The position numbers and the translations under genes were made by a program. The notes under the pieces are model-generated. The model was not told the DNA's origin and did no database searches. It saw only the letters and a program-made list of their open reading frames with translations. From Candidatus Freyarchaeum deiterrae (lineage in GTDB: Archaea > Asgardarchaeota > Jordiarchaeia > Jordiarchaeales > Jordiarchaeaceae): a stretch of 64,000 bases of DNA. Location of the stretch: contig CP147778.1 in assembly GCA_037305845.1 (NCBI GenBank), positions 352,001-416,000 of the forward strand, written 5' to 3'. The stretch's first letter is position 1; each line of letters begins with the position of its first letter. Positions 9,731 to 60,701 of this stretch are shown here, one piece after another.

Positions 9731-11065
9731 CTATCCCTTGAATATGTCTTTGGTTTTCTTCTCCAGTTCCTTGATGTCGCCCTTATTTACTTTTTTGGGG
9801 TTGTAATACTTCGCTCTGGAAGAATCAGGCAGCCAGTTATCGGGTACGCTTATAGTCTTGGCCTCTCCAGCCGGAACTGGTGGGGGTGCTTGTGCATATG
9901 CTGGCGATGCTGGCTGACGTGAACTGTGCATCTCCTCTTCCTCAGCTGGAGGTCTTTTCGGATCCTTGCGACCCTTATCTTTATCCTTATCCTTGTCCTT
10001 ACCCTTACCTTTGTCCTTATCCTTGTCCTTACCCTTACCTTTGTCCTTATCCTTGTCCTTACCCTTACCTTTGTCCTTATCCTTGTCCTTACCCTTACCT
10101 TTGTCCTTGTCCTTGTCCTTACCCTTACCCTTAGGTTGATCTTGCTCCTCATCATCTGGAAATCTTCTGGGAGCCTGAGAACCCGGAGCTCCACCATACT
10201 CCGCCTCAGCTGGAGGTCTTCTGGGAGCCTGGTAACCCGGAGCTGAACCGTATCCCGGAGCCTCACCATATCCCGGAGCTCCACCATACTCCGCCTCAGC
10301 TGGAGGTCTACTGGGAGCCTGGTAACCCGGAGCTGAACCGTATCCCGGAGCCTCACCATATCCCGGAGTTGGCTCTGGGCGGGGTGCTCTTCTTTGGGCT
10401 TCTGGCTTAATTTTTCCTAGAACAGTTGAAATCTGTGACCTCAGCTGCATCGATGGCGGGAGTGGATATCCTCCTGGGCCGTATTGTTGTGGTGTGGCTG
10501 CTGCTGCGGCTTCGAGTTTATTCATTTCTTTTGAAAAGACTGATGGTTTGACGTATTTCTCTTCTACTATGCCGCCTCGAGCTGGTCTGTATGTTCCGAT
10601 TGCTTCCTCTCCTGAGGATTCGCCGAAGCTTGAGGGTTGCATTTCTCGCCTTGCAGGTTGTTGTCTGGCTTGGCTCGGACTTCGACCGCCTGCTGCCTCA
10701 GCCTCTCTGGGAGACGCTGCGTAGGTTTTTTCTGATATATACTGTCTCCCTTGCGGTGTACCAGCCGCCGCCACGGAGGGGGTTCTACTGACTGACGGGG
10801 GAGTTTGATCCCTCGCAGCAGTTACAAAATCTGCAGGTTCTCTACTTCCAAGTGAAATCGGTCTTGCTTCTCTCTTTTCTCCTGTGTAAGAGGACCAGCT
10901 TGCAGCACCGTCTACTTTACTTTCAAGTTCCGTCATTCTTTGATTTATGAAAGCTATTTCCTGTCTCACTGCTTCTGTATACTGGTCGAAGACTTCTGCT
11001 ATTTTTTCAATCCCTTGCTCAAGCTTTTTTAGGACATCATCAACATGTTTCTCCTTATTTACCAT
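9731..11065 (-). CDS. Low-complexity, largely disordered protein with N-terminal coiled coil, PGYG repeats and (KG)n(KD)n repeats
   Basis: 444-aa ORF with a heptad-like N-terminus, in-frame repeats and GGGAGAGG upstream. Confidence 0.75.
   Translation of the reverse strand: MVNKEKHVDDVLKKLEQGIEKIAEVFDQYTEAVRQEIAFINQRMTELESKVDGAASWSSYTGEKREARPISLGSREPADFVTAARDQTPPSVSRTPSVAAAGTPQGRQYISEKTYAASPREAEAAGGRSPSQARQQPARREMQPSSFGESSGEEAIGTYRPARGGIVEEKYVKPSVFSKEMNKLEAAAAATPQQYGPGGYPLPPSMQLRSQISTVLGKIKPEAQRRAPRPEPTPGYGEAPGYGSAPGYQAPSRPPAEAEYGGAPGYGEAPGYGSAPGYQAPRRPPAEAEYGGAPGSQAPRRFPDDEEQDQPKGKGKDKDKDKGKGKDKDKDKGKGKDKDKDKGKGKDKDKDKGKGKDKDKDKDKGRKDPKRPPAEEEEMHSSRQPASPAYAQAPPPVPAGEAKTISVPDNWLPDSSRAKYYNPKKVNKGDIKELEKKTKDIFKG
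9982..10129. repeat. 30-bp tandem repeat (about 5 copies) encoding KGKGKDKDKD
   Basis: Unit CCTTGTCCTTACCCTTACCTTTGTCCTTAT repeated from 9991. Confidence 0.95.
10182..10368. repeat. 90-bp tandem repeat (2 near-identical copies plus partial) encoding PGYGEAPGYGSAPGYQAP(S/R)RPPAEAEYGGA
   Basis: 10182-10271 and 10272-10361 differ at about one position. Confidence 0.95.
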
Positions 11066-12196: not shown

Positions 12197-12675
12197 TTTC
12201 CAAATACCTCACAAATTCCTTTTCAAACCATTTTATCGCATCAAAGATATAAAACATTCGTCTAAAACCACTCAACTAAGGTCGAGAAAACAAGCAATCA
12301 AAACAAGAAGGCATCCAAATTTCCAATTTAAACTCGTGATCTACTATTTTTCAGCTTAAAAACTCCTGAAAAGTTCTTTCCCAATTCCATAATTCTATTG
12401 TATTCGTTGCTCGAATAGTAAAACTTAATATAATAATAGACCCTAAAAAATTCATTAGACATAAAGGAATGTAAAGTGAACCCTTTGATTGCGAAGGGTA
12501 AGCCACTAATTTCTGTTAACCCTGCAAAAAGAATGGACAGAATGAATGAACTAAAATAATTAGTCACCCTATTCGTAAAGCATCGACAGGCAATAATAGA
12601 GGCAATCTGTCTAAAATATGGAGCCGTTTTATTGTAGAGGGTGACGGGGGTTAAAATGTTATACTAAATAAATTA

Positions 12676-15600
12676 GTGGGGGACGACCATATGAGAGTGA
12701 GAAGTACGAGGAAGGAAGCATTTACAATAGTGGTTTTGGCAGCAATCCTACTTACAGGTGCGGTTGTACTTACCTCGACCTCGATTCAGAGCCAAAACCA
12801 AAAAACGTACCCACTCATCAACGCCTACATGCAAGGTGGCTCCCAAGGTTCTCCCCCTATCATTCTACCAAAGATGAACATCGATTCTAGCAGAATATTA
12901 AACGGAAGCGTCTACACTGAAACGATAATTGTGCTGGCGGACAACATAGTGATAGATGGAAACGGATCCACCGTCCAGGGCTCTGGATCTGGTTCTGGGT
13001 GTGGCTTCAACTTAACTGGCAGAAGTAACGTAACCATCTTTAACGTCACAGTCACGGGGTGGGACTACGGCTTCTACTTGCAACAAAGCTCGAACAACAA
13101 TCTCTCAGGCAACACCGCAAACAACAACACTTGGAGCGGCTTCTTACTACAATCCAACTCAAACAACAATACTCTTTCCAGTAACATCGCAAACAACAAC
13201 GGCGAAGGCTTCTTACTACAATCCAACTCGAACAACAATTTTACAAATAACACCGCAAATAACAACAACGGTGACGGCTTCGTATTGGCTTCCAGCTCTT
13301 ACAATACTCTTTCGGGTAACACCGCAAACAACAACGGATACCAAGGCTTCTGGCTAGTAACAAGCTCTTACAACAATACTCTTTCGGGTAACACCGCAAA
13401 CAACAACGGACTCGACGGCTTCCCCCTGTACTCCAGCTCTTACAATACTCTTTCGGGTAACACCGCAAACAACAACTACGAGGACGGCTTCGACCTGTAC
13501 AATAGCTCCAACAATATTCTTTCGAGTAACAACGCCACAAACAACAAATGGGACGGCTTCGACCTGCTCTCCAGCTCGAACAATAATACTCTTGGGGGTA
13601 ACAACGCCACAAACAACATGTATGGCTTCAGCCTGTGGTCCAGCGCGAACTACAATAATCTTTCGGGTAACAAAGCCATAAACAACACATACAGTTTCTA
13701 TCTTGAAACTGGTAGCTCAGGCAATGACTTTACGGGAAGTTTTGTAGCTAATTATCTCAGAGTTCAGGTTCTATACTATAACGGTGATGCTATGCAGGGT
13801 GCGGATGTTAAAGTAGAGGTCGACGGGAACCCAGTATACGCCTCTCTGGGATTTGGTGGAAGTAATTCCACATCAGACCAATATGGATTGACAGATTGGA
13901 TTTTCGTCCCATATGGAATCTTTAATAATGTCACACTGGTGCAGAACACAACGAATGTAACCGTAAACTTCACGGTTTTGAGTTTTACCAACAACAATAG
14001 AACAGTTAATATGTCCTCTCCTCATACGGAGACCTTCACTGCCACGCCCATTATATGGGAGGATACCTCAATAAATGGTTCCCAGAACATTTCAAACATT
14101 GATATTATACTAAACGGAAACCTTACAATCGCTAGCGGAGGAAGCCTAACACTAACCAACGTTCACCTAAGTGTTAACTGCACTACCAACGGTGAACACA
14201 GCATAGTGGTTCAGGGTGGGGGGGCACTGTATATGAATGACACCGACGGAAATCCCAATACTAGGAACGACGCCACAAAAATCACAGCATACACTCAGGA
14301 TAACGCGCATAATTTCCTCTTCTGGGTGCAACCCGGAGCAACATTCCAGATGAACAACAGCGAAATACACTACTGCGGATACGACAACTGGCCGAACATG
14401 GATTGCCTCGGTCCCTGCATAAACACAAACAACACAATAATCGAGAACAACACCTTCTCAAACAACTACTATGGAATAGTGCTCCAGAACGCCTACTATA
14501 ACACAATAAGAAACAACAATGCCACAAACAACAGTTACGAAGGCTTCTTCCTTGACTCCAGTTCCAACAACCAACTCATTAACAATACGGCTGCAAACAA
14601 CAACTGGAACGGCTTCATCCTCTATTCCGGTTCCAACAGCAACAATCTCTCAGGCAACACCGCAAACAGCAACGGCAACAACGGCTTCCACCTGGAAAAC
14701 GGCTCGAATAATCTTCTTTCAGGCAACACCGCCGCGTACAACACTGGTGCCGACTTCTACCTAAACTCCAGCTCATACAACACTCTTTCGGGCAACACCG
14801 CAGCCACTGTAGAAATCTACAACATTCCGGTGAATATTACCATTGTGGCGAATCCGACTACCGACTACATCCTCAGGTATCATGGCTTGTCTGTGGATCA
14901 ACCTCTGCCCGATGACTTCTGGAACTACTATCCACTCTACATCATCCAGACAACTAGTTCTTCATTTACCTACACCACGATACAAAACTTTTCCTCAGGG
15001 AGCCACTACGTCGAGTACGCGAGTTCTGGTTACGTGACGAACTACGCCTGGCATGCAAGAATATACATCAATAATGTCCTAGTGGCAGAAGGAGACGTTG
15101 GAAGATCCAACCACCTCATAGCCTATTTCGACGCAACTAACAACTCCCAATACGGCTTCTACCTAAACTCCAGCTTATACAACACTCTTTCGGGCAACAC
15201 CGCAAACAACAACACTTGGAGCGGCTTCTATTTGCGTTACAGTTCAAATAACACTATTTCGGGTAACAACGCAAGCAACAACTATTATGGCTTCTTCCTT
15301 TATTCCAGCTTGAACAATACTATTATGGGTAACAATGCCGTAAACAACACAAACGGTTTCTATCTGGATAGTGGTAGCACAGGCAATGATTTAACGGGTA
15401 GTGTTGTAGTGAATTATCTCTGTGTTGAGGTTCTGGGACAAACTGGTGGTGTTGTGCAGGGTGCGGATGTTAAGATAGAGGTTGACGGAAACACTATGTA
15501 TGCCTCTCCCGGATTTGGCGGCAGCAACTCCACGACAGACCGAAACGGATTAACTGACTGGATTTTATTCCCGTATCAAACCTGTGTCGGTGGAACTTGG

Positions 15601-16650
15601 ATGGGTAATACGACCCTTGTGACTGTGAAATTCTTTGCACTAAATATTACGAATAGTTCAAGAGTAGTTAACATGAGTTCACCGCACAAGGAAACCTTTG
15701 TTGTGACAAACGTAGATACAGCTATTACCACTGATATCGGTTATGGCCCAAATCAGTATTGGAACGCCTCAGCACAAATGGGCATAGAGCTCACACTTAA
15801 TCTCACAGCACCGGTTAAAATAAGCATTATAAAACCCATAAACAACCCAGGGGGAAGTGCATCCTCAGGCTTGAACTTTCTAAGATTTGTTTCCATCGAG
15901 GCGAACGACACCAATCCGATTCAGAAAATCGGAATAACGATACACTACACAGATAGCCTCCTCATAGAAGAAAACTCCTTAGCGTTATGGTACTGGAACA
16001 CAACCTCAGGAAACTGGATTATGCTCCCAAGCACTATAGACCCGCAAAATAACATTGTGACTTCATATACTGATCATCTGACCAATTTCGCTTTAATGGG
16101 AAGTACATCGTACCTTCCACTCCTACCACTCCTCCTCCTGCTTACGCCCAGCGGCCTAAATCCACTGGTTTACCTGGCTCTGGGCTTGGTTGCGGTTGGA
16201 GTGGTCACAGTTGCGGCGCTGGGATTACGGAGAAGAAGAGAAGAACAAGTTCCTAAGACGGAAGCTCCAACCAGATACGCAAGTACCCGAACTCCCCAGA
16301 AAAGTCCAACCAAATACGCGAGAACTCAAACTTCTCGAAGAAAGAAAATTGTGGAAGTTCCTGAGCAGGAAATGGCACTTAAGTTTAGTTGGCCAACACC
16401 TGCTCCCGAAAAACCGAGGTGTGTATACTGCGGCCTCGAGGTTCCAGAGAATGCCAACTACTGCCCCAGATGTCATGGGATCATTGCGCATTGCTCCGTG
16501 TGTAGTCAGAACATCGCTTCAGGAGACCGTTTCCTAGAGTGCCCCCACTGCGGTACCCTGAGTCACAGGGACCACCTGTTAGAGTGGATCAAGGTGAAGG
16601 GGTACTGTCCAAGTTGCAAGAATAAATTGAGGGAATCAGACTTCGATTAG
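12676..16650 (+). CDS. Large single-pass surface protein: signal peptide, NosD/PbH1 beta-helix repeats, TM helix, cytoplasmic zinc ribbon plus RING-like domain
   Basis: Hydrophobic N-terminus. (S/G)NxAxNN..GFxL..S repeats. TM VYLALGLVAVGVVTVAALGL followed by RRRR. Tail CVYC..CPRC..CSVC..CPHC..H..H...W..CPSC. Confidence 0.85.
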   Translation: MGDDHMRVRSTRKEAFTIVVLAAILLTGAVVLTSTSIQSQNQKTYPLINAYMQGGSQGSPPIILPKMNIDSSRILNGSVYTETIIVLADNIVIDGNGSTVQGSGSGSGCGFNLTGRSNVTIFNVTVTGWDYGFYLQQSSNNNLSGNTANNNTWSGFLLQSNSNNNTLSSNIANNNGEGFLLQSNSNNNFTNNTANNNNGDGFVLASSSYNTLSGNTANNNGYQGFWLVTSSYNNTLSGNTANNNGLDGFPLYSSSYNTLSGNTANNNYEDGFDLYNSSNNILSSNNATNNKWDGFDLLSSSNNNTLGGNNATNNMYGFSLWSSANYNNLSGNKAINNTYSFYLETGSSGNDFTGSFVANYLRVQVLYYNGDAMQGADVKVEVDGNPVYASLGFGGSNSTSDQYGLTDWIFVPYGIFNNVTLVQNTTNVTVNFTVLSFTNNNRTVNMSSPHTETFTATPIIWEDTSINGSQNISNIDIILNGNLTIASGGSLTLTNVHLSVNCTTNGEHSIVVQGGGALYMNDTDGNPNTRNDATKITAYTQDNAHNFLFWVQPGATFQMNNSEIHYCGYDNWPNMDCLGPCINTNNTIIENNTFSNNYYGIVLQNAYYNTIRNNNATNNSYEGFFLDSSSNNQLINNTAANNNWNGFILYSGSNSNNLSGNTANSNGNNGFHLENGSNNLLSGNTAAYNTGADFYLNSSSYNTLSGNTAATVEIYNIPVNITIVANPTTDYILRYHGLSVDQPLPDDFWNYYPLYIIQTTSSSFTYTTIQNFSSGSHYVEYASSGYVTNYAWHARIYINNVLVAEGDVGRSNHLIAYFDATNNSQYGFYLNSSLYNTLSGNTANNNTWSGFYLRYSSNNTISGNNASNNYYGFFLYSSLNNTIMGNNAVNNTNGFYLDSGSTGNDLTGSVVVNYLCVEVLGQTGGVVQGADVKIEVDGNTMYASPGFGGSNSTTDRNGLTDWILFPYQTCVGGTWMGNTTLVTVKFFALNITNSSRVVNMSSPHKETFVVTNVDTAITTDIGYGPNQYWNASAQMGIELTLNLTAPVKISIIKPINNPGGSASSGLNFLRFVSIEANDTNPIQKIGITIHYTDSLLIEENSLALWYWNTTSGNWIMLPSTIDPQNNIVTSYTDHLTNFALMGSTSYLPLLPLLLLLTPSGLNPLVYLALGLVAVGVVTVAALGLRRRREEQVPKTEAPTRYASTRTPQKSPTKYARTQTSRRKKIVEVPEQEMALKFSWPTPAPEKPRCVYCGLEVPENANYCPRCHGIIAHCSVCSQNIASGDRFLECPHCGTLSHRDHLLEWIKVKGYCPSCKNKLRESDFD
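13066..13700 (+). repeat. Degenerate 66-72-bp coding tandem repeats (PbH1 beta-helix rungs)
   Basis: AATACTCTTTCGGGTAACACCGCAAACAACAAC recurs at about 13303, 13375 and 13444. Related units occur at about 14500-14800 and 15150-15370. Confidence 0.9.
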
Positions 16651-16907
16651 AACCTTAACTTTTGAATTAACCAAAGTTTTCTATTTCCTCTTTTTTATTT
16701 GAGGTGCTTATTGAAGATTAAGTTGTCATTCAATCTGCGATTGAAAAATTAGAGAATTGGAAAAAATTTAATTTATACTTTAGTGTTCACCTTTGGATAC
16801 TTGTTAGGGTTTCTTTATTTTATCATTTTTGGGAAAGATTATTTCCGTTTTTTGTCGGAAATCTTTCCGAGTATTATCTCATAATAGGGGGATGTGTTTG
16901 GTGTTTT

Positions 16908-17885
16908 TTATTCTAGTCCCGCTTCTTTGTATCGTTTTAGTGTTAACTGGGCGTCTTTTGCTATGGCTTCGTCGTTTAGTGCTTGGGTTAATGGTTTTAC
17001 TGCGTTTTTGCTCACTAGGTCTCTTTTCGCGTATAGGGCGAGTAGTCTGGCTGCTGCTTTTCGGATGTCTTCGTGTTTGTCTTTTAGTAGTTTTGCAGAT
17101 GCGTCTACGGCTTTCTCGTCTGTGAGGTTTTTATTCGCGTAGATTACCAGTGTTTCTGCTGCGTTTTCCCTCACATCTTCGTCCTTGTCTTTTAGGAGTT
17201 TGACCAGCCTCTCCATCGCTTTTTCGTCTGTGAATCCTTTCTCGGCGTAGATTCCCACAGTCATAGCGTCGTTCATTCTCACTCCGTTTTCGATGTCTTT
17301 GAGCCCGTTAATCAGTTTTTCTAGTACCTTTTCGTCTGTCACGCCTTTTTCGGCGTAGTTTAGAACGGCGTAGGAGGCGTTTCTGCGCACGCTTGCGTTA
17401 TTATCGTCCATCAGGGCGACTATTTTTTCAAACGCGTCTTTGACCATAGAATTTTTTTCCGCGAAGAAACCGAGTATTAGGACGCCGTTAGCTCTTACTT
17501 TCTCAAATTTGTTCTCTAGCATTTGTAGGAGCATGTCCTTACTTAGGTCACGATTACTAACGAGGTTTGCTCCGGCGTAAACGGTGAGAGCCATGGTTGT
17601 ATTGATGAGAACATCTATTTCTTTGTCATCCAACATTTTTATCAGAGGATTGATAGCCTTTTCGTTGAATAGTTGTTGTTTACCGTATTTGGCTATTGTC
17701 CAGGCGGACATGCTTCTAGCCTTTTTATCTTTGTCACTTAAAAACGGTATAAGAAGAATTAGTGCCTTCTCATTGAATTCACCCTTGTTAGCATATTTAG
17801 CGGTTTTAAGCAGGGCAGTATAGCGTTTTTTGTCCTTCTTATTCTGAAGGGCAGCTAAGAGTTTCTCTACTTTTTCACTGCTCAA
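16908..17885 (-). CDS. HEAT-repeat (alpha-solenoid) protein
   Basis: About 38-aa repeats of EKA...LxKLLxDxxxxVRxNAAxxLxxYA. GGAGG upstream. Confidence 0.88.
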   Translation of the reverse strand: MSSEKVEKLLAALQNKKDKKRYTALLKTAKYANKGEFNEKALILLIPFLSDKDKKARSMSAWTIAKYGKQQLFNEKAINPLIKMLDDKEIDVLINTTMALTVYAGANLVSNRDLSKDMLLQMLENKFEKVRANGVLILGFFAEKNSMVKDAFEKIVALMDDNNASVRRNASYAVLNYAEKGVTDEKVLEKLINGLKDIENGVRMNDAMTVGIYAEKGFTDEKAMERLVKLLKDKDEDVRENAAETLVIYANKNLTDEKAVDASAKLLKDKHEDIRKAAARLLALYAKRDLVSKNAVKPLTQALNDEAIAKDAQLTLKRYKEAGLE

Positions 17886-58539: not shown

Positions 58540-60701
58540 TTATGCTCTGTGTCTCAACAGGACGACAGCAGCCACCGCTACCATCACAACAGCAATCGCT
58601 CCTCCAGCCAGCAACAGTGTGGAGACAGAACTCTGGCCCTGCGAAGAGGAGTAATAGAGTAGCCAAGGGGTTAAGTTAATGCCTGCCGCTTGAGGTATCC
58701 AGGTTTCACCCATTATTGTATTGACTGTGCAATTTTGGATAATCACGTTTGCCATATTGGGATAATTAGAAATCCCAATAACACTATTGATAGTGGATGG
58801 AGCCGACGTATTTCCAGTGCAGGTCAACATTGCGGAGTCATATACCGAAAAGATTACGCCCGTTATATTTGACAAGCTCGCGCTACACTGGTTGTGCAAA
58901 TAAATAATGCTAGTAGCTGTGTTTGTTGCGCTAAACTTGGAAAAGTCATATATATCAATTGTGTTAAGGAAAGTAGTGTTCTTCGCGCTGAGCTGAGAAG
59001 AGCCGTACGTATTAATTAGGCTGGCTATTGTGTTGTTTTGAGTGTTTAGATTTGCATGGTCGTGAAGATATACATTGACTGATGGAAGATTTCCACTAAT
59101 CGTAGCGGTATTTGTGCCAACAACCGCTAAAGAGTTCAGGGTGGCATCTCCAGAACCTAAATAATCCCAGCTAGTTGAGTAAATCCACGGACCACCAAGA
59201 ACGCCGTTGACAACTGACACGTCACCATTACTCCTCGCAGCGACGCCGACATTCGTGATAGGGAATTGTTAATAGTCATAACAGAAAGATCATAACCATA
59301 GAAGTCGGCCATTGCACCACCAGTTGCGGACACGTTTAAAATGTTTACAACCGACGAATCGTAGCTGTTCACAACGAGAGACCTCGTACCTGTGAAATTA
59401 ACGTATTCCACATCTATCGTAGATTGATTTTGCGCATTGAGTGTTAGATCAGTGCCACTTAAAAGTGTGTTACTGTTCTTGAGTGTTCCTGAAGATTGGT
59501 CAGCCAGATGCACATAAGCTCCAAGGCTGGCGTTTACGTTCTGTAGACTGAGACTAGAGTGTGCCAAGCAGTAAATATCAAAAACTGAGATATTGCTGTT
59601 TTGGAAAGCCATGTTAGAGTAATCGGTGCATTTAACAACTAGAAATATTGCCGAGGCGTTGTTCAAGTAGATACTTGAACTGTCGTAGGCTTCTATTCTT
59701 AAAGATCCTGCCGTATAGTTTTGCAGGTAAACTTTTGAGCTGGCGTGGGCGAACACATTCCATACAGTGTTGTTATTTGTTATGTTTACGGTGGAGCTGG
59801 CGAGAGCACAAACACTATTGAGAAGCGGAGTCGTAGTCGAATAACTGCCGTTTGTTAGGGTGGTGGTGTTTCTACAGTTACTCAAACCAGTAGGGGGCGT
59901 GGTTCCGTTAATGATGAGGCTTCCTCCATTGCAAACAAGACCGTAGTCGAATGATGCCGTAATCGTTGAGTTGTCTACCGTGATGTTTGTTGCTTCAGAA
60001 CTCCATAAACTGCCAATTGTGCAATTGTTAGTTATTTGTCCGGTTGCGAAGTTCCCGGCATTAAGAACGCTTACTTGGCTGTTGTTAGTTATCAGCATTT
60101 TTGAAGAATCTAGGGTATTAAGAAGGATTACCGTGCAGTTATTGGCGTTCAGGTAGCTGTTATCATAAAGGGTTAATACGTTACTAAGACCACCATAAGG
60201 TAGCCGGGATCCCGACAGGTAAATTCTTGAATTGTCGTAAGCAACCATGTAGCCTGTTATGTTGCAGTTGTTAGCGGTTACCACAGACGAGTTATAAGTG
60301 AATACGTCAGAGAGAGTAGAATTTATGATGGTTACCTGGGAGGAGTCGTAAATATACAGTCTAACTGGGGGGGACATATAGTTGGTGTTGTTAATGGTGA
60401 TCTGGGAGGAGCCGTAGACGCTTATCCAGTTTAGTCCACGAGCTGTGGGATTTGTGTTAGTTTCGGTGGTGTTGGTGAAGGTTCCATTTAGTACGCCGTT
60501 GTTAATGGTGGCCACGCTGTCCATGTATCCTATACCATCACCCAGACCGGTTACGGTTGAGTTTGTGACGTGTATGAAGGGGGCGAGTGTAACCTTTTCC
60601 ATGGGACTGGAGGCTACAACGTAGTGTGACCCTGCGAGAACTGGAGCAATGCCTAAGCAGAGCAAAAGTACAATAAGAACTGATACAAGTGTCTTTTTCA
60701 A
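58540..60701 (-). pseudogene. Secreted beta-solenoid surface protein with C-terminal TM anchor, split by one frameshift near 59260
   Basis: ORF 59157..60701 has the signal peptide and YDxSxxxxxNS repeats. ORF 58540..59220 continues the same repeats and ends in a TM plus RHRA. Confidence 0.75.

Follow-up and report, generated by a model that had tools for sequence, protein, structure and literature searches.

A predicted membrane-anchored RING E3 with a GAIN-like juxtamembrane domain in the Asgard archaeon Candidatus Freyarchaeum deiterrae

Of all known prokaryotes, Asgard archaea are most closely related to eukaryotes. The genome of one of them, Candidatus Freyarchaeum deiterrae, encodes the large surface protein that is the subject of this report. 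The gene is located at positions 12676–16650 of the forward strand within a stretch of 64,000 nucleotides (hereafter the window; positions 352,001–416,000 of contig CP147778.1, assembly GCA_037305845.1). Its product, referred to below as the receptor, has a single predicted transmembrane (TM) helix, a predicted juxtamembrane domain resembling the GAIN domains in adhesion-type G protein-coupled receptors (aGPCRs), and a C-terminal tail in which a zinc ribbon (ZnR) precedes a RING finger.

Two sets of described proteins come closest to the receptor, the small RING-type ubiquitin ligases (E3s) of archaea and the GAIN-type domains of microbial surface proteins. The E1/E2/RING cascade of Helarchaeota Hel_GB_B ubiquitylates UEV-Vps23 in vitro and its RING E3 binds the UEV domain directly (bioRxiv 10.1101/2023.07.25.550441), and in srfp of Caldiarchaeum subterraneum the substitutions I30Q, W58A and R69A impair the reaction (PMC5654768). 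Reconstitution of the Asgard cascade has so far been confined to small soluble RING proteins. Microbial GAIN (MAIN) domains are widespread and self-cleave at HX(S/T), the fragments staying together; the proteins carry sortase, cell-wall or SLH anchors, the preprint states that the cell-retained fragment has not been tied to any signalling, and it mentions neither Asgard archaea nor RING (Brogan & Rudner, bioRxiv 10.64898/2026.05.12.724683). The RING type with its E3 activity and the microbial GAIN domains (2026) are known already. In the literature searched, we found no description of a GAIN-like autoproteolytic module combined with one TM helix and a ZnR–RING tail in Asgard archaea, and nothing joining Asgard archaea with GAIN domains, joining GATOR2 with Asgard RING, or dealing with transmembrane RING E3s in Asgard archaea.

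With a confidence slightly above even, we predict that the receptor is a membrane-anchored RING E3 with a sheddable ectodomain, a type-I surface glycoprotein. An initial annotation of the window had suggested a transmembrane E3 or signalling receptor and considered it a candidate for an undescribed system. The former suggestion is backed by the predicted RING fold, the conservation of E2-contact positions and the ubiquitin genes of the genome, while E3 activity and signalling stay predictions; the latter is overstated, as the RING type is a known archaeal family with active E3s (PMC5654768; bioRxiv 10.1101/2023.07.25.550441).

The zinc-ribbon–RING tail and the ubiquitin system of the genome

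The tail is composed of two adjoining domains:

16420–16473 (+): C4 zinc ribbon with ligands C1249, C1252, C1263 and C1266; Pfam DZR 33.9 bits and Zn_Ribbon_1 29.6 bits when the tail alone is searched
16492–16647 (+): RING finger of C4H2C2 type with ligands C1273, C1276, C1289, C1292, H1297, H1300, C1311 and C1314; reaches the C-terminus

The full series reads C1249-x2-C1252-x10-C1263-x2-C1266-x6-C1273-x2-C1276-x12-C1289-x2-C1292-x4-H1297-x2-H1300-x3-W1304-x6-C1311-P-x-C1314, exactly as initially annotated from base 16420, at which the codon for C1249 starts. Both Pfam ribbon models exceed their cut-offs with the isolated tail. In an alignment of 110 homologous tails, C1249, C1252, C1263, C1266, C1273, C1276, C1292, H1297, C1311, P1312 and C1314 are invariant, C1289, H1300 and W1304 are retained in at least 106 sequences, and G1309 is invariant or nearly so, so that the pattern cannot be put down to chance. 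The eight zinc ligands of the RING form four pairs with RING spacing, each invariant or present in at least 109 of the 110 relatives; three Zn would be expected per tail. Among the putative E2-contact positions, V1275 (preceding ligand 2) is Val or Ile in 105, W1304 (in the helix) is Trp in 106, P1312 (following ligand 7) is Pro in all 110, and K1315 (following ligand 8) is Lys or Arg in 63 tails; V1275, W1304 and K1315 are the equivalents of I30, W58 and R69 of srfp.

An AF2 model of the tail (pLDDT 79) contains a region, residues 36–89, that fits RING-H2/U-box domains with a root-mean-square deviation (rmsd) of 1.1–1.8 Å over 46–52 residues; the structural matches include RNF165, RNF24, EL5, RNF126 and the Prp19 U-box (Z 6.5–7.9). 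Since the model superposes on such domains, the last ~52 amino acids (aa) are predicted to form a cross-brace RING rather than independent ribbons. The RING-like character and the E2-contacting Trp of the initial annotation are therefore borne out by a cross-brace model and by a Trp in nearly all relatives. Searches with the tail-family profile retrieved RING E3s of the PDB with E-values of 3e-8 to 1e-5 (RNF4 2.9e-8, RNF126 1e-7, RNF24 3e-7), followed by ZNRF3 (5e-5). Judged by its sequence, the RING belongs to the archaeal srfp / Prok-RING_1 (PF14446)-like family; the Prok-RING families were reportedly described by Burroughs, Iyer and Aravind in 2011.

Ubiquitin, E1 and E2 genes are all present in the genome, together with genes for JAB, UEV-Vps23 and proteins of the endosomal sorting complex (ESCRT-III). 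Neither of the outcomes named as refuting in the initial annotation, a tail of independent ribbons or the lack of a Ub/E2 system together with that of partner binding, was thus obtained. The genome has two ubiquitin operons, at C1:1.91 and 1.99 Mb, ~1.5 Mb away from the receptor gene. Operon A encodes an 86-aa RING protein, a pro-ubiquitin ending in GGPY, an E2 and an E1-like enzyme. In operon B, a JAB protein is encoded along with ubiquitin, E2 and E1, and the gene of a RING-like protein is close by. In total, the genome contains three UQ_con proteins, two to three ubiquitins, E1-like ThiF proteins in both operons, and JAB. The UEV-Vps23 homologue (L013:1027–1824, -) is 47% identical to the biochemically studied Helarchaeota protein and is accompanied by two Snf7/ESCRT-III proteins. 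In operon A (L012, C1:1984666-1988043) the ubiquitin gene (L012:2399–2650, -, measured to the GG) and that of the 86-aa RING share 7 bases; the E2 is encoded at L012:1462–1869 (-) and the E1 by an ORF at C1:1985328-1986029. The ubiquitin is a pro-form that needs trimming, given the GGPY end. Between its gene and the first ATG of the E2 are ~530 bases, and the E2 start is uncertain because the UQ_con match begins three codons 5' of this ATG.

The receptor RING shares 50% identity with the 86-aa RING encoded in this RING-Ub-E2-E1 operon and 48% with the 76-aa RING E3 on contig 4 of Helarchaeota Hel_GB_B (E 6e-20); the ubiquitin of that locus has the C-terminus GGSPKN, by which we identify the locus as the published operon. 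Co-folding of the operon-A E2 with the RING resulted in a score of 0.41, the best control being 0.00, with 100% contact agreement between runs and a partner pLDDT of at least 87. Among 80 solved complexes 58 pass the mark, and among 110 mismatched pairs 2 do so; passes at or below 0.60 comprise only seven of the 80 solved complexes and both passing mismatches, and the support is weak. It is likely that the RING binds the E2~ubiquitin of the organism.

When both domains of the tail model are considered, the best Foldseek matches are the C-termini of IFT144/WDR19 (3.6e-5), MIOS, WDR24 and WDR59 (3.6e-5 to 4e-4). The 110-sequence profile aligns WDR19 aa 1246–1325 to profile positions 8–88 without long gaps at an E-value of 1.1e-7, comparable to bona fide RING E3s, and also matches MIOS (2.7e-5), WDR24 (6e-5) and WDR59 (6.7e-5; IFT122 is included in a range of 3e-5 to 8e-5), although Cys-rich profiles can inflate the E-values for WDR19 and GATOR2. 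The resemblance to GATOR2 C-termini noted in the initial annotation is thus real at the level of profile and fold, and is strongest for IFT144/WDR19.

Distribution of the module and alternative roles of the tail

Searched against 1.84 billion proteins, a profile built from five tails matched 2686 cluster representatives at E<1e-3 and 558 at the stricter threshold of E<1e-10. In the 150 matches listed, the module is at or near the C-terminus in nearly all, often 50–90 residues past a TM helix, in proteins of 54–1864 aa. A scan of one genome per species yielded 32 matching loci, 31 of which were in archaeal metagenome bins (about two dozen named Asgard lineages), the remaining one being bacterial with a weak match (E 4e-4). 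Within the phylum, 25 of 31 genomes, the present one included, possess the module in 1–29 copies each. The ZnR–RING module is a large, almost purely Asgard family.

Thirteen matches are found in the genome studied here, at least two of them decayed. Five of the 13 modules are attached to large surface proteins, with distal parts made of beta-helix, DUF2341, DUF2341 plus beta-helix, or Ig-like Big_7/Big_13 domains, and several are carried by small multi-TM proteins. Proteins combining an ectodomain, a TM helix and the zinc finger (ZnF)–RING unit are accordingly present both in this genome and across the phylum. Outside this genome the tail follows HEAT repeats, leucine-rich repeats or PCI/winged-helix arrays; P0022 and P0030 are soluble HEAT–ZnR–RING examples. 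An E3 family would be expected to show this pattern, in which the RING stays constant and the recognition or scaffold domains before it vary.

Two decayed copies of the module, at C1:312776-313012 (-) and C1:125142-125315 (+), contain in-frame stops (one TGA, and TGA plus TAA, respectively), which points to turnover of the module within the genome. Two proteins from other metagenomes, P0006 and P0156, are similar GAIN-like–TM receptors that end in a zinc ribbon, CPFCG...CxKCGxxLL, without a RING. These ribbon-only tails indicate that the ribbon has a role of its own and that the RING is an addition which some members of the family carry.

The tail could instead be a structural assembly module, in which pairing of ZnF–RING units, as in GATOR2/SEACAT and IFT-A, would from the cytoplasmic face cluster surface proteins or arrange them into lattices, the receptor being an adhesin or S-layer-like protein with an oligomerising anchor. 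The best two-domain matches, to the C-termini of IFT144/WDR19, MIOS, WDR24 and WDR59, agree with this, as do the 13 copies in the genome, which would provide many potential pairing partners, the dispensability of the RING in P0006 and P0156, and the weak support from the E2 co-fold. However, all eight RING ligands are kept, unlike in WDR19, hardly any of the 110 tails deviates at the E2-contact Val/Ile, Trp and Pro, and the proteins closest in sequence are small E3s with catalytic activity. Assembly and ligase roles are also compatible, since many RING E3s act as dimers. We consider a purely structural role unlikely.

A constant tail behind varying ectodomains is also what would be expected of a common trafficking or turnover signal. 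The tail might accordingly be a non-catalytic handle that binds ubiquitin, E2 or UEV-Vps23, so that the receptor or its stub is sorted or degraded as cargo. For IFT172, ubiquitin binding by a U-box-like domain at the C-terminus has been reported (bioRxiv 10.1101/2024.11.05.620812), the Hel RING E3 is a direct binder of the UEV domain (bioRxiv 10.1101/2023.07.25.550441), and the receptor linker contains a conserved duplicated P-T-R/K-Y-A motif together with 7 lysines. The conservation pattern of the tail, on the other hand, is that of E2-binding RINGs, and a self-ubiquitylating E3 and a cargo tag overlap mechanistically. A handle of this kind appears quite improbable to us.

The GAIN-like domain and the remainder of the gene

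The most informative element of the ectodomain, absent from the initial annotation, is a GAIN-like juxtamembrane domain with an H-L-T triad. The features of this region are as follows:

15700–16101 (+): predicted GAIN/MAIN/ZU5-like beta-sandwich, aa 1009–1142 (134 aa); common to the four giant RING-tailed paralogues of the genome
16075–16083 (+): H1134-L1135-T1136, predicted GPS-type triad; predicted scissile bond between L1135 and T1136, followed by the last strand TNFALMG
16111–16167 (+): hydrophobic patch YLPLLPLLLLL (Kyte-Doolittle 1.76) and PSGLNP turn, which together separate the GAIN-like domain from the TM helix; conserved

The stretch aa 1009–1142 is conserved in all giant RING-tailed relatives regardless of their distal ectodomains. 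Its AF2 model (pLDDT 88, pTM 0.80) is a beta-sandwich, for which Foldseek retrieved the GAIN domains of CD97 (2.4e-5) and BAI3 (3e-5). VIA structural matches were BAI3 (Z 10.4, 130 of 134 residues aligned, rmsd 3.6), CD97 (Z 9.6, 20% identity), BAI2 (Z 9.4) and CELSR1 (Z 8.6), as well as GPR126, GPR110 and GPR56. Ankyrin ZU5 (Z 10.3) and NLRP1 FIIND (Z 10.2) match as well as GAIN does, and CARD8 is among the ZU5/FIIND matches. An hmmsearch of PDB sequences with a profile of the domain gave no meaningful match, and the GAIN relationship rests on the predicted fold, the H-L-T motif and sub-threshold matches to Pfam GPS. Word-index homologue searches reached the Frey/Loki subfamily only and are little informative on the wider spread of GAIN-like domains.

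The best-conserved motif of the domain is H-L-T/S-x-F-A-x-x-G, represented by HLTNFALMG in the receptor and by HLTYF, HLSSF and HLSNF in the paralogues; His and Leu are invariant and the third position is Thr or Ser in 11 of 11 sequences. In the model, the triad occupies the turn preceding the last beta-strand (between model strands 119–124 and 129–133). For seven structures with a chain range ending at or near the apparent cleavage site, the alignment terminates at model residue 127, which is L1135. Among them are 4dlq_A (latrophilin-1, ..837), 5kvm_A (GPR56, ..382), 8hc0_A (GPR110, ..566) and 6x6a_B (NLRP1, ..1212). The end-points 382, 566 and 1212 we take to be cleavage sites, and for latrophilin-1 the nucleophile is T838, as stated in a published account (PMC13062082). 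Because these alignments end at the Leu of HLT, the bond between L1135 and T1136 corresponds structurally to the scissile bond of the GPS. Pfam GPS (PF01825) matches 3 of the 11 members below threshold (13.7–18.6 bits, cut-off 22.5; profile positions 5–45 of 45). The alignment covers the last 36 residues and begins at a conserved [YF]-W-[ND], which may correspond to the Phe-Trp of cleavage-competent GAINs. Altogether, it is moderately likely that the domain cleaves itself between L1135 and T1136.

The three giant paralogues, L050 (C1:345944-351016, ending 988 bases before the window), L049 (C1:142002-145130) and L051 (C1:3009695-3013441), are 1691, 1043 and 1249 aa long and share the GAIN-like domain with HL[ST]xFA, the PSGLNP–TM–basic unit and the ZnR–RING tail. 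Their distal ectodomains consist of DUF2341 plus beta-helix (L050), two DUF2341 domains (L049) and Ig-like Big_7/Big_13 (L051). Unlike the linker of the receptor, those of the paralogues include a helical 'GKLTxDEY' hairpin.

The segment PSGLNP–TM–RRRR invites comparison with archaeosortase/exosortase-type sorting signals, at which cutting would anchor the ectodomain and free the RING tail. The likeness is superficially tripartite (motif, TM, Arg cluster), and NCBIfam CoaP_CTERM gives a weak match (E 0.011, 15.4 bits against a cut-off of 35). Yet within the genome the motif is confined to the four giant RING-tailed proteins and is never C-terminal, 104–213 residues always following it, and the H-L-T site in the GAIN-like fold, 28 aa upstream, is the better-supported processing site. 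A sorting signal is therefore hardly credible, and we rejected it: 136 residues follow the motif of the receptor (measured to the end of the RRRR cluster), and Exosortase_EpsH (PF09721) has no match in this 100%-complete single-contig genome, whereas a control genome was matched. The pre-TM region matches choice-of-anchor U (E 0.11) and CoaP_CTERM only weakly, and these matches were not used as evidence.

The other features of the gene are listed below.

12657–12673 (+): TATA-like A/T box ttatactaaataaatta, ~20–30 nt 5' of ATG 12691; read from the sequence
12691–16650 (+): probable translated gene from ATG 12691 (M6), placed by homologue N-termini; the longest open reading frame (ORF) starts at GTG 12676; ~1319–1324 aa
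12724–12786 (+): N-terminal hydrophobic segment, signal peptide or signal anchor; aa 15–33, Kyte-Doolittle 2.55, preceded by basic residues
12898–15690 (+): distal ectodomain, three PbH1/NosD-type right-handed parallel beta-helix blocks with inserts; contains most of the 56 sequons
16168–16239 (+): TM helix, aa ~1164–1184 (hydrophobic aa 1164–1182; Kyte-Doolittle 2.56), and RRRR stop-transfer, aa 1185–1188
16240–16419 (+): cytoplasmic linker, basic and rich in Pro; contains 7 lysines and a duplicated motif, APTRYA / SPTKYA

Positions 12676–16650 form a single unbroken ORF of 1324 codons. Translation probably starts at ATG 12691 rather than GTG 12676, as homologues begin with MRG or MRV and the A/T box, a possible archaeal promoter, is located at 12657–12673. 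The signal peptide, TM helix, RRRR, basic linker and ectodomain of more than 1100 aa of the initial annotation were each found, the N-terminal segment being either a signal peptide or a signal anchor. All 56 N-x-S/T sequons fall within aa 36–1150 and none within the tail, with ~39 expected from composition. Their confinement between the two hydrophobic segments and the RRRR after the TM helix are consistent with a glycosylated ectodomain outside the cell and a tail in the cytoplasm. The 64 aa that lead from RRRR up to the zinc ribbon (aa 1185–1248) include 17 Lys/Arg and 7 Asp/Glu, with a pI of ~11. The duplicated juxtamembrane motif APTRYA ... SPTKYA (16252–16330, aa 1193–1218), in which P-T-R/K-Y is kept in the relatives P0002, P0003, P0004 and P0155, is possibly a short linear motif for a cytoplasmic partner.

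The beta-helix blocks of the distal ectodomain extend approximately over aa ~75–345, ~455–715 and ~823–912. They are interrupted or followed by two duplicated beta-sandwich-like inserts (aa ~350–450 and ~913–1005) and one insert of ~107 aa (aa 716–822). Profile matches of the ectodomain are to Pfam Beta_helix (7e-55), NosD (1.4e-54) and TIGR03804 (3.2e-75 over 11 stretches); Pfam and NCBIfam searches with aa 345–470 and aa 700–830 gave no match.

The gene is located at ~0.365 Mb of a genome that is complete on one contig (3.58 Mb, 40.7% GC). Homologues of the gene and related loci carry the names Freyarchaeota, Jordarchaeia and Lokiarchaeia. Positions 15200–17000 recur without a single difference in metagenome contigs from two separate studies (wetland and freshwater sediment). 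Short-read assemblies break within the beta-helix repeats: between 13056 and 15200 metagenome contigs break or join differently, and a variant that skips 144 bases (13077 to 13222, with six other letters between) occurs in runs of two studies. These differences suggest either population variants in rung number or cross-assembly with paralogues. One 267-nt contig of a metatranscriptome library is identical to 15672–15938, a weak hint of transcription of the receptor gene, and there is one further, doubtful piece of 41 nt.

Among the neighbouring genes, which encode a succinate dehydrogenase-like protein, BKACE, a DHH phosphoesterase, a HEAT protein and a nitroreductase/SCP2 protein, no link to the ubiquitin system was found. 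The 325-aa HEAT-repeat protein (16908–17885, -) is convergent with and directly 3' of the receptor gene, and has no Cys motif. Upstream, on the opposite strand, is a 444-aa ORF (9731–11065, -) without a Pfam match. A small surface protein encoded at 58540–59220 ends in TM-RHRA and has neither a GAIN-like motif nor a RING.

Predicted mechanism and comparison with known systems

Several observations weigh against the receptor being a membrane-anchored RING E3 with a sheddable ectodomain. Concerning the tail, the ligand order is C4H2C2 and not the canonical C3H2C3 of RING-H2, just 63 of the 110 relatives have a basic residue at the linchpin position that follows the last Cys, and the scores are below the curated Pfam cut-offs for Prok-RING_1 (27.6 against 29.1 bits) and zf-RING_2 (24.9 against 27.3 bits); paralogous tails of the genome exceed the Prok-RING_1 cut-off with 29.9 and 29.8 bits. 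The pass of the E2–RING co-fold may reflect likeness only, because RING–E2 complexes have already been solved. The closest two-domain structural matches come from GATOR2/IFT-A, in which the ZnF–RING serves mainly assembly and not catalysis. Moreover, the receptor gene is outside any ubiquitin operon, adjoining the genes for the DHH phosphoesterase and the HEAT-repeat protein. Concerning the GAIN-like domain, the receptor has no match to Pfam GPS and is devoid of the helical GAIN-A subdomain and the GPS disulfide cysteines. With 134 aa, an all-beta fold and no Cys in aa 971–1248, the domain resembles GAIN-B/MAIN rather than a full aGPCR GAIN. We know of no ankyrin-type ZU5 domain that cleaves itself, and since such domains match equally well, the GAIN-like fold alone does not imply cleavage. 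The H-X-S/T motif, too, is necessary but not sufficient for GAIN cleavage, as BAI2 (HLS) and ADGRG5 (HLT) are uncleaved (PMC13062082).

If the receptor is nonetheless a membrane-anchored RING E3, it could operate as follows. Its ~970-aa beta-helix ectodomain would most likely bind or process a polysaccharide or a neighbouring surface, as members of the family suggest. The GAIN-like domain would undergo self-cleavage of H-X-S/T type at the bond joining L1135 to T1136, after which the N-terminal fragment would be held non-covalently through TNFALMG, the last strand, which belongs to the membrane fragment, and could be detached by force. The RING would recruit the organism's own E2~ubiquitin and ubiquitylate the receptor stub or neighbouring membrane or cortical proteins, and the mark could be read by the UEV-Vps23/ESCRT machinery of the genome. 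More speculatively, loss of the ectodomain might bare TNFALMG and the YLPLLPLLLLL patch and thereby alter RING activity.

Carried further, these steps would describe an adhesion-type mechanoreceptor whose RING E3 is governed by GAIN-like autoproteolysis and by the loss of the ectodomain under force: the stub would rearrange or cluster, ubiquitylation would ensue, and ESCRT-dependent removal or signalling would follow. As a whole, this scheme is tentative and, in our estimation, rather unlikely. If it were true, the receptor would be the first MAIN/GAIN protein outside eukaryotes with an intracellular output of its C-terminal fragment, and a prokaryote would unite GAIN-type mechanosensing with receptor-coupled ubiquitylation, two eukaryote-like principles. 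A TM helix with an E3-type tail is a natural candidate for a signalling role of the cell-retained MAIN fragment. Even the existence of a surface-wired RING family, if true, would mean that receptor-coupled ubiquitylation, a hallmark of eukaryotic down-regulation and ESCRT, may predate eukaryotes. The interest of the receptor for the evolution of receptor-coupled ubiquitylation and adhesion-type mechanosensing is built on entirely computational evidence.

With ZNRF3/RNF43 and the PA-TM-RING proteins (RNF13/GRAIL), the receptor shares the layout of signal peptide, ectodomain, one TM helix and cytoplasmic RING, and the tail profile matches RNF13 (1.5e-3) as well as ZNRF3 (5e-5). The ectodomain is unrelated, lacking a PA domain, and the zinc ribbon and the C4H2C2 order of the receptor are missing from those ligases. 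This likeness is best viewed as an analogy of design rather than shown orthology.

IFT144/WDR19, IFT122, MIOS, WDR24 and WDR59 (PDB 8bbg, 7uhy) possess a tandem of ribbon and RING with the same spacing, C-x2-C-x10-C-x2-C-x6-C..., as the receptor. The WDR19 alignment shows other residues in place of both His and of the first pair's second Cys (3/4 site-1 ligands), whereas the receptor RING keeps all eight ligands; in GATOR2 and IFT-A the ZnF–RING caps beta-propeller/alpha-solenoid proteins, whereas the receptor module follows a TM helix. The Asgard ZnR–RING module, which is also found after HEAT repeats, is possibly the ancestor of the GATOR2/IFT-A ZnF–RING C-termini. Together with the HEAT–ZnR–RING relatives, the IFT144/GATOR2 profile match is a lead on the origin of protocoatomer-type C-terminal zinc domains; specific common ancestry, as opposed to two common zinc modules adjoining, is a lead and not a result.

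The closest relatives of the RING itself are the archaeal small RING E3s, srfp and that of Hel_GB_B. They have in common with the receptor the RING subtype C-x2-C-x12-CPxC-x4-H-x2-HLLEW-x6-CPxC, the E2-contact Ile/Val, the Trp, the basic residue after the last Cys, and cognate ubiquitin, E1 and E2 in the same genome. These E3s are soluble proteins of 76–86 aa encoded within ubiquitin operons, whereas the receptor is a single-pass protein of 1320 aa with a zinc ribbon preceding the RING.

MAIN domains, the GAIN-B/GPS of aGPCRs and polycystins, and the ZU5 of the FIIND (NLRP1/CARD8) are the closest counterparts of the predicted domain of the receptor, a beta-sandwich that follows a very large adhesive or enzymatic ectodomain and immediately precedes the cell anchor. 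The H-X-S/T lies in the turn before the last strand, at the structurally equivalent scissile position, and [YF]-W-[ND] ... G-x-W ... HL[ST]xFA of the receptor partly aligns to Pfam GPS, although GAIN-A and the GPS disulfides are absent and the sequence scores are sub-threshold. The receptor's C-terminal fragment comprises the TM helix and the cytoplasmic ZnR–RING, and is therefore nearer to the logic of aGPCRs, in which GAIN, membrane and cytoplasmic effector are connected: aGPCRs combine seven TM helices with a G protein, and the receptor combines one TM helix with a predicted E3.

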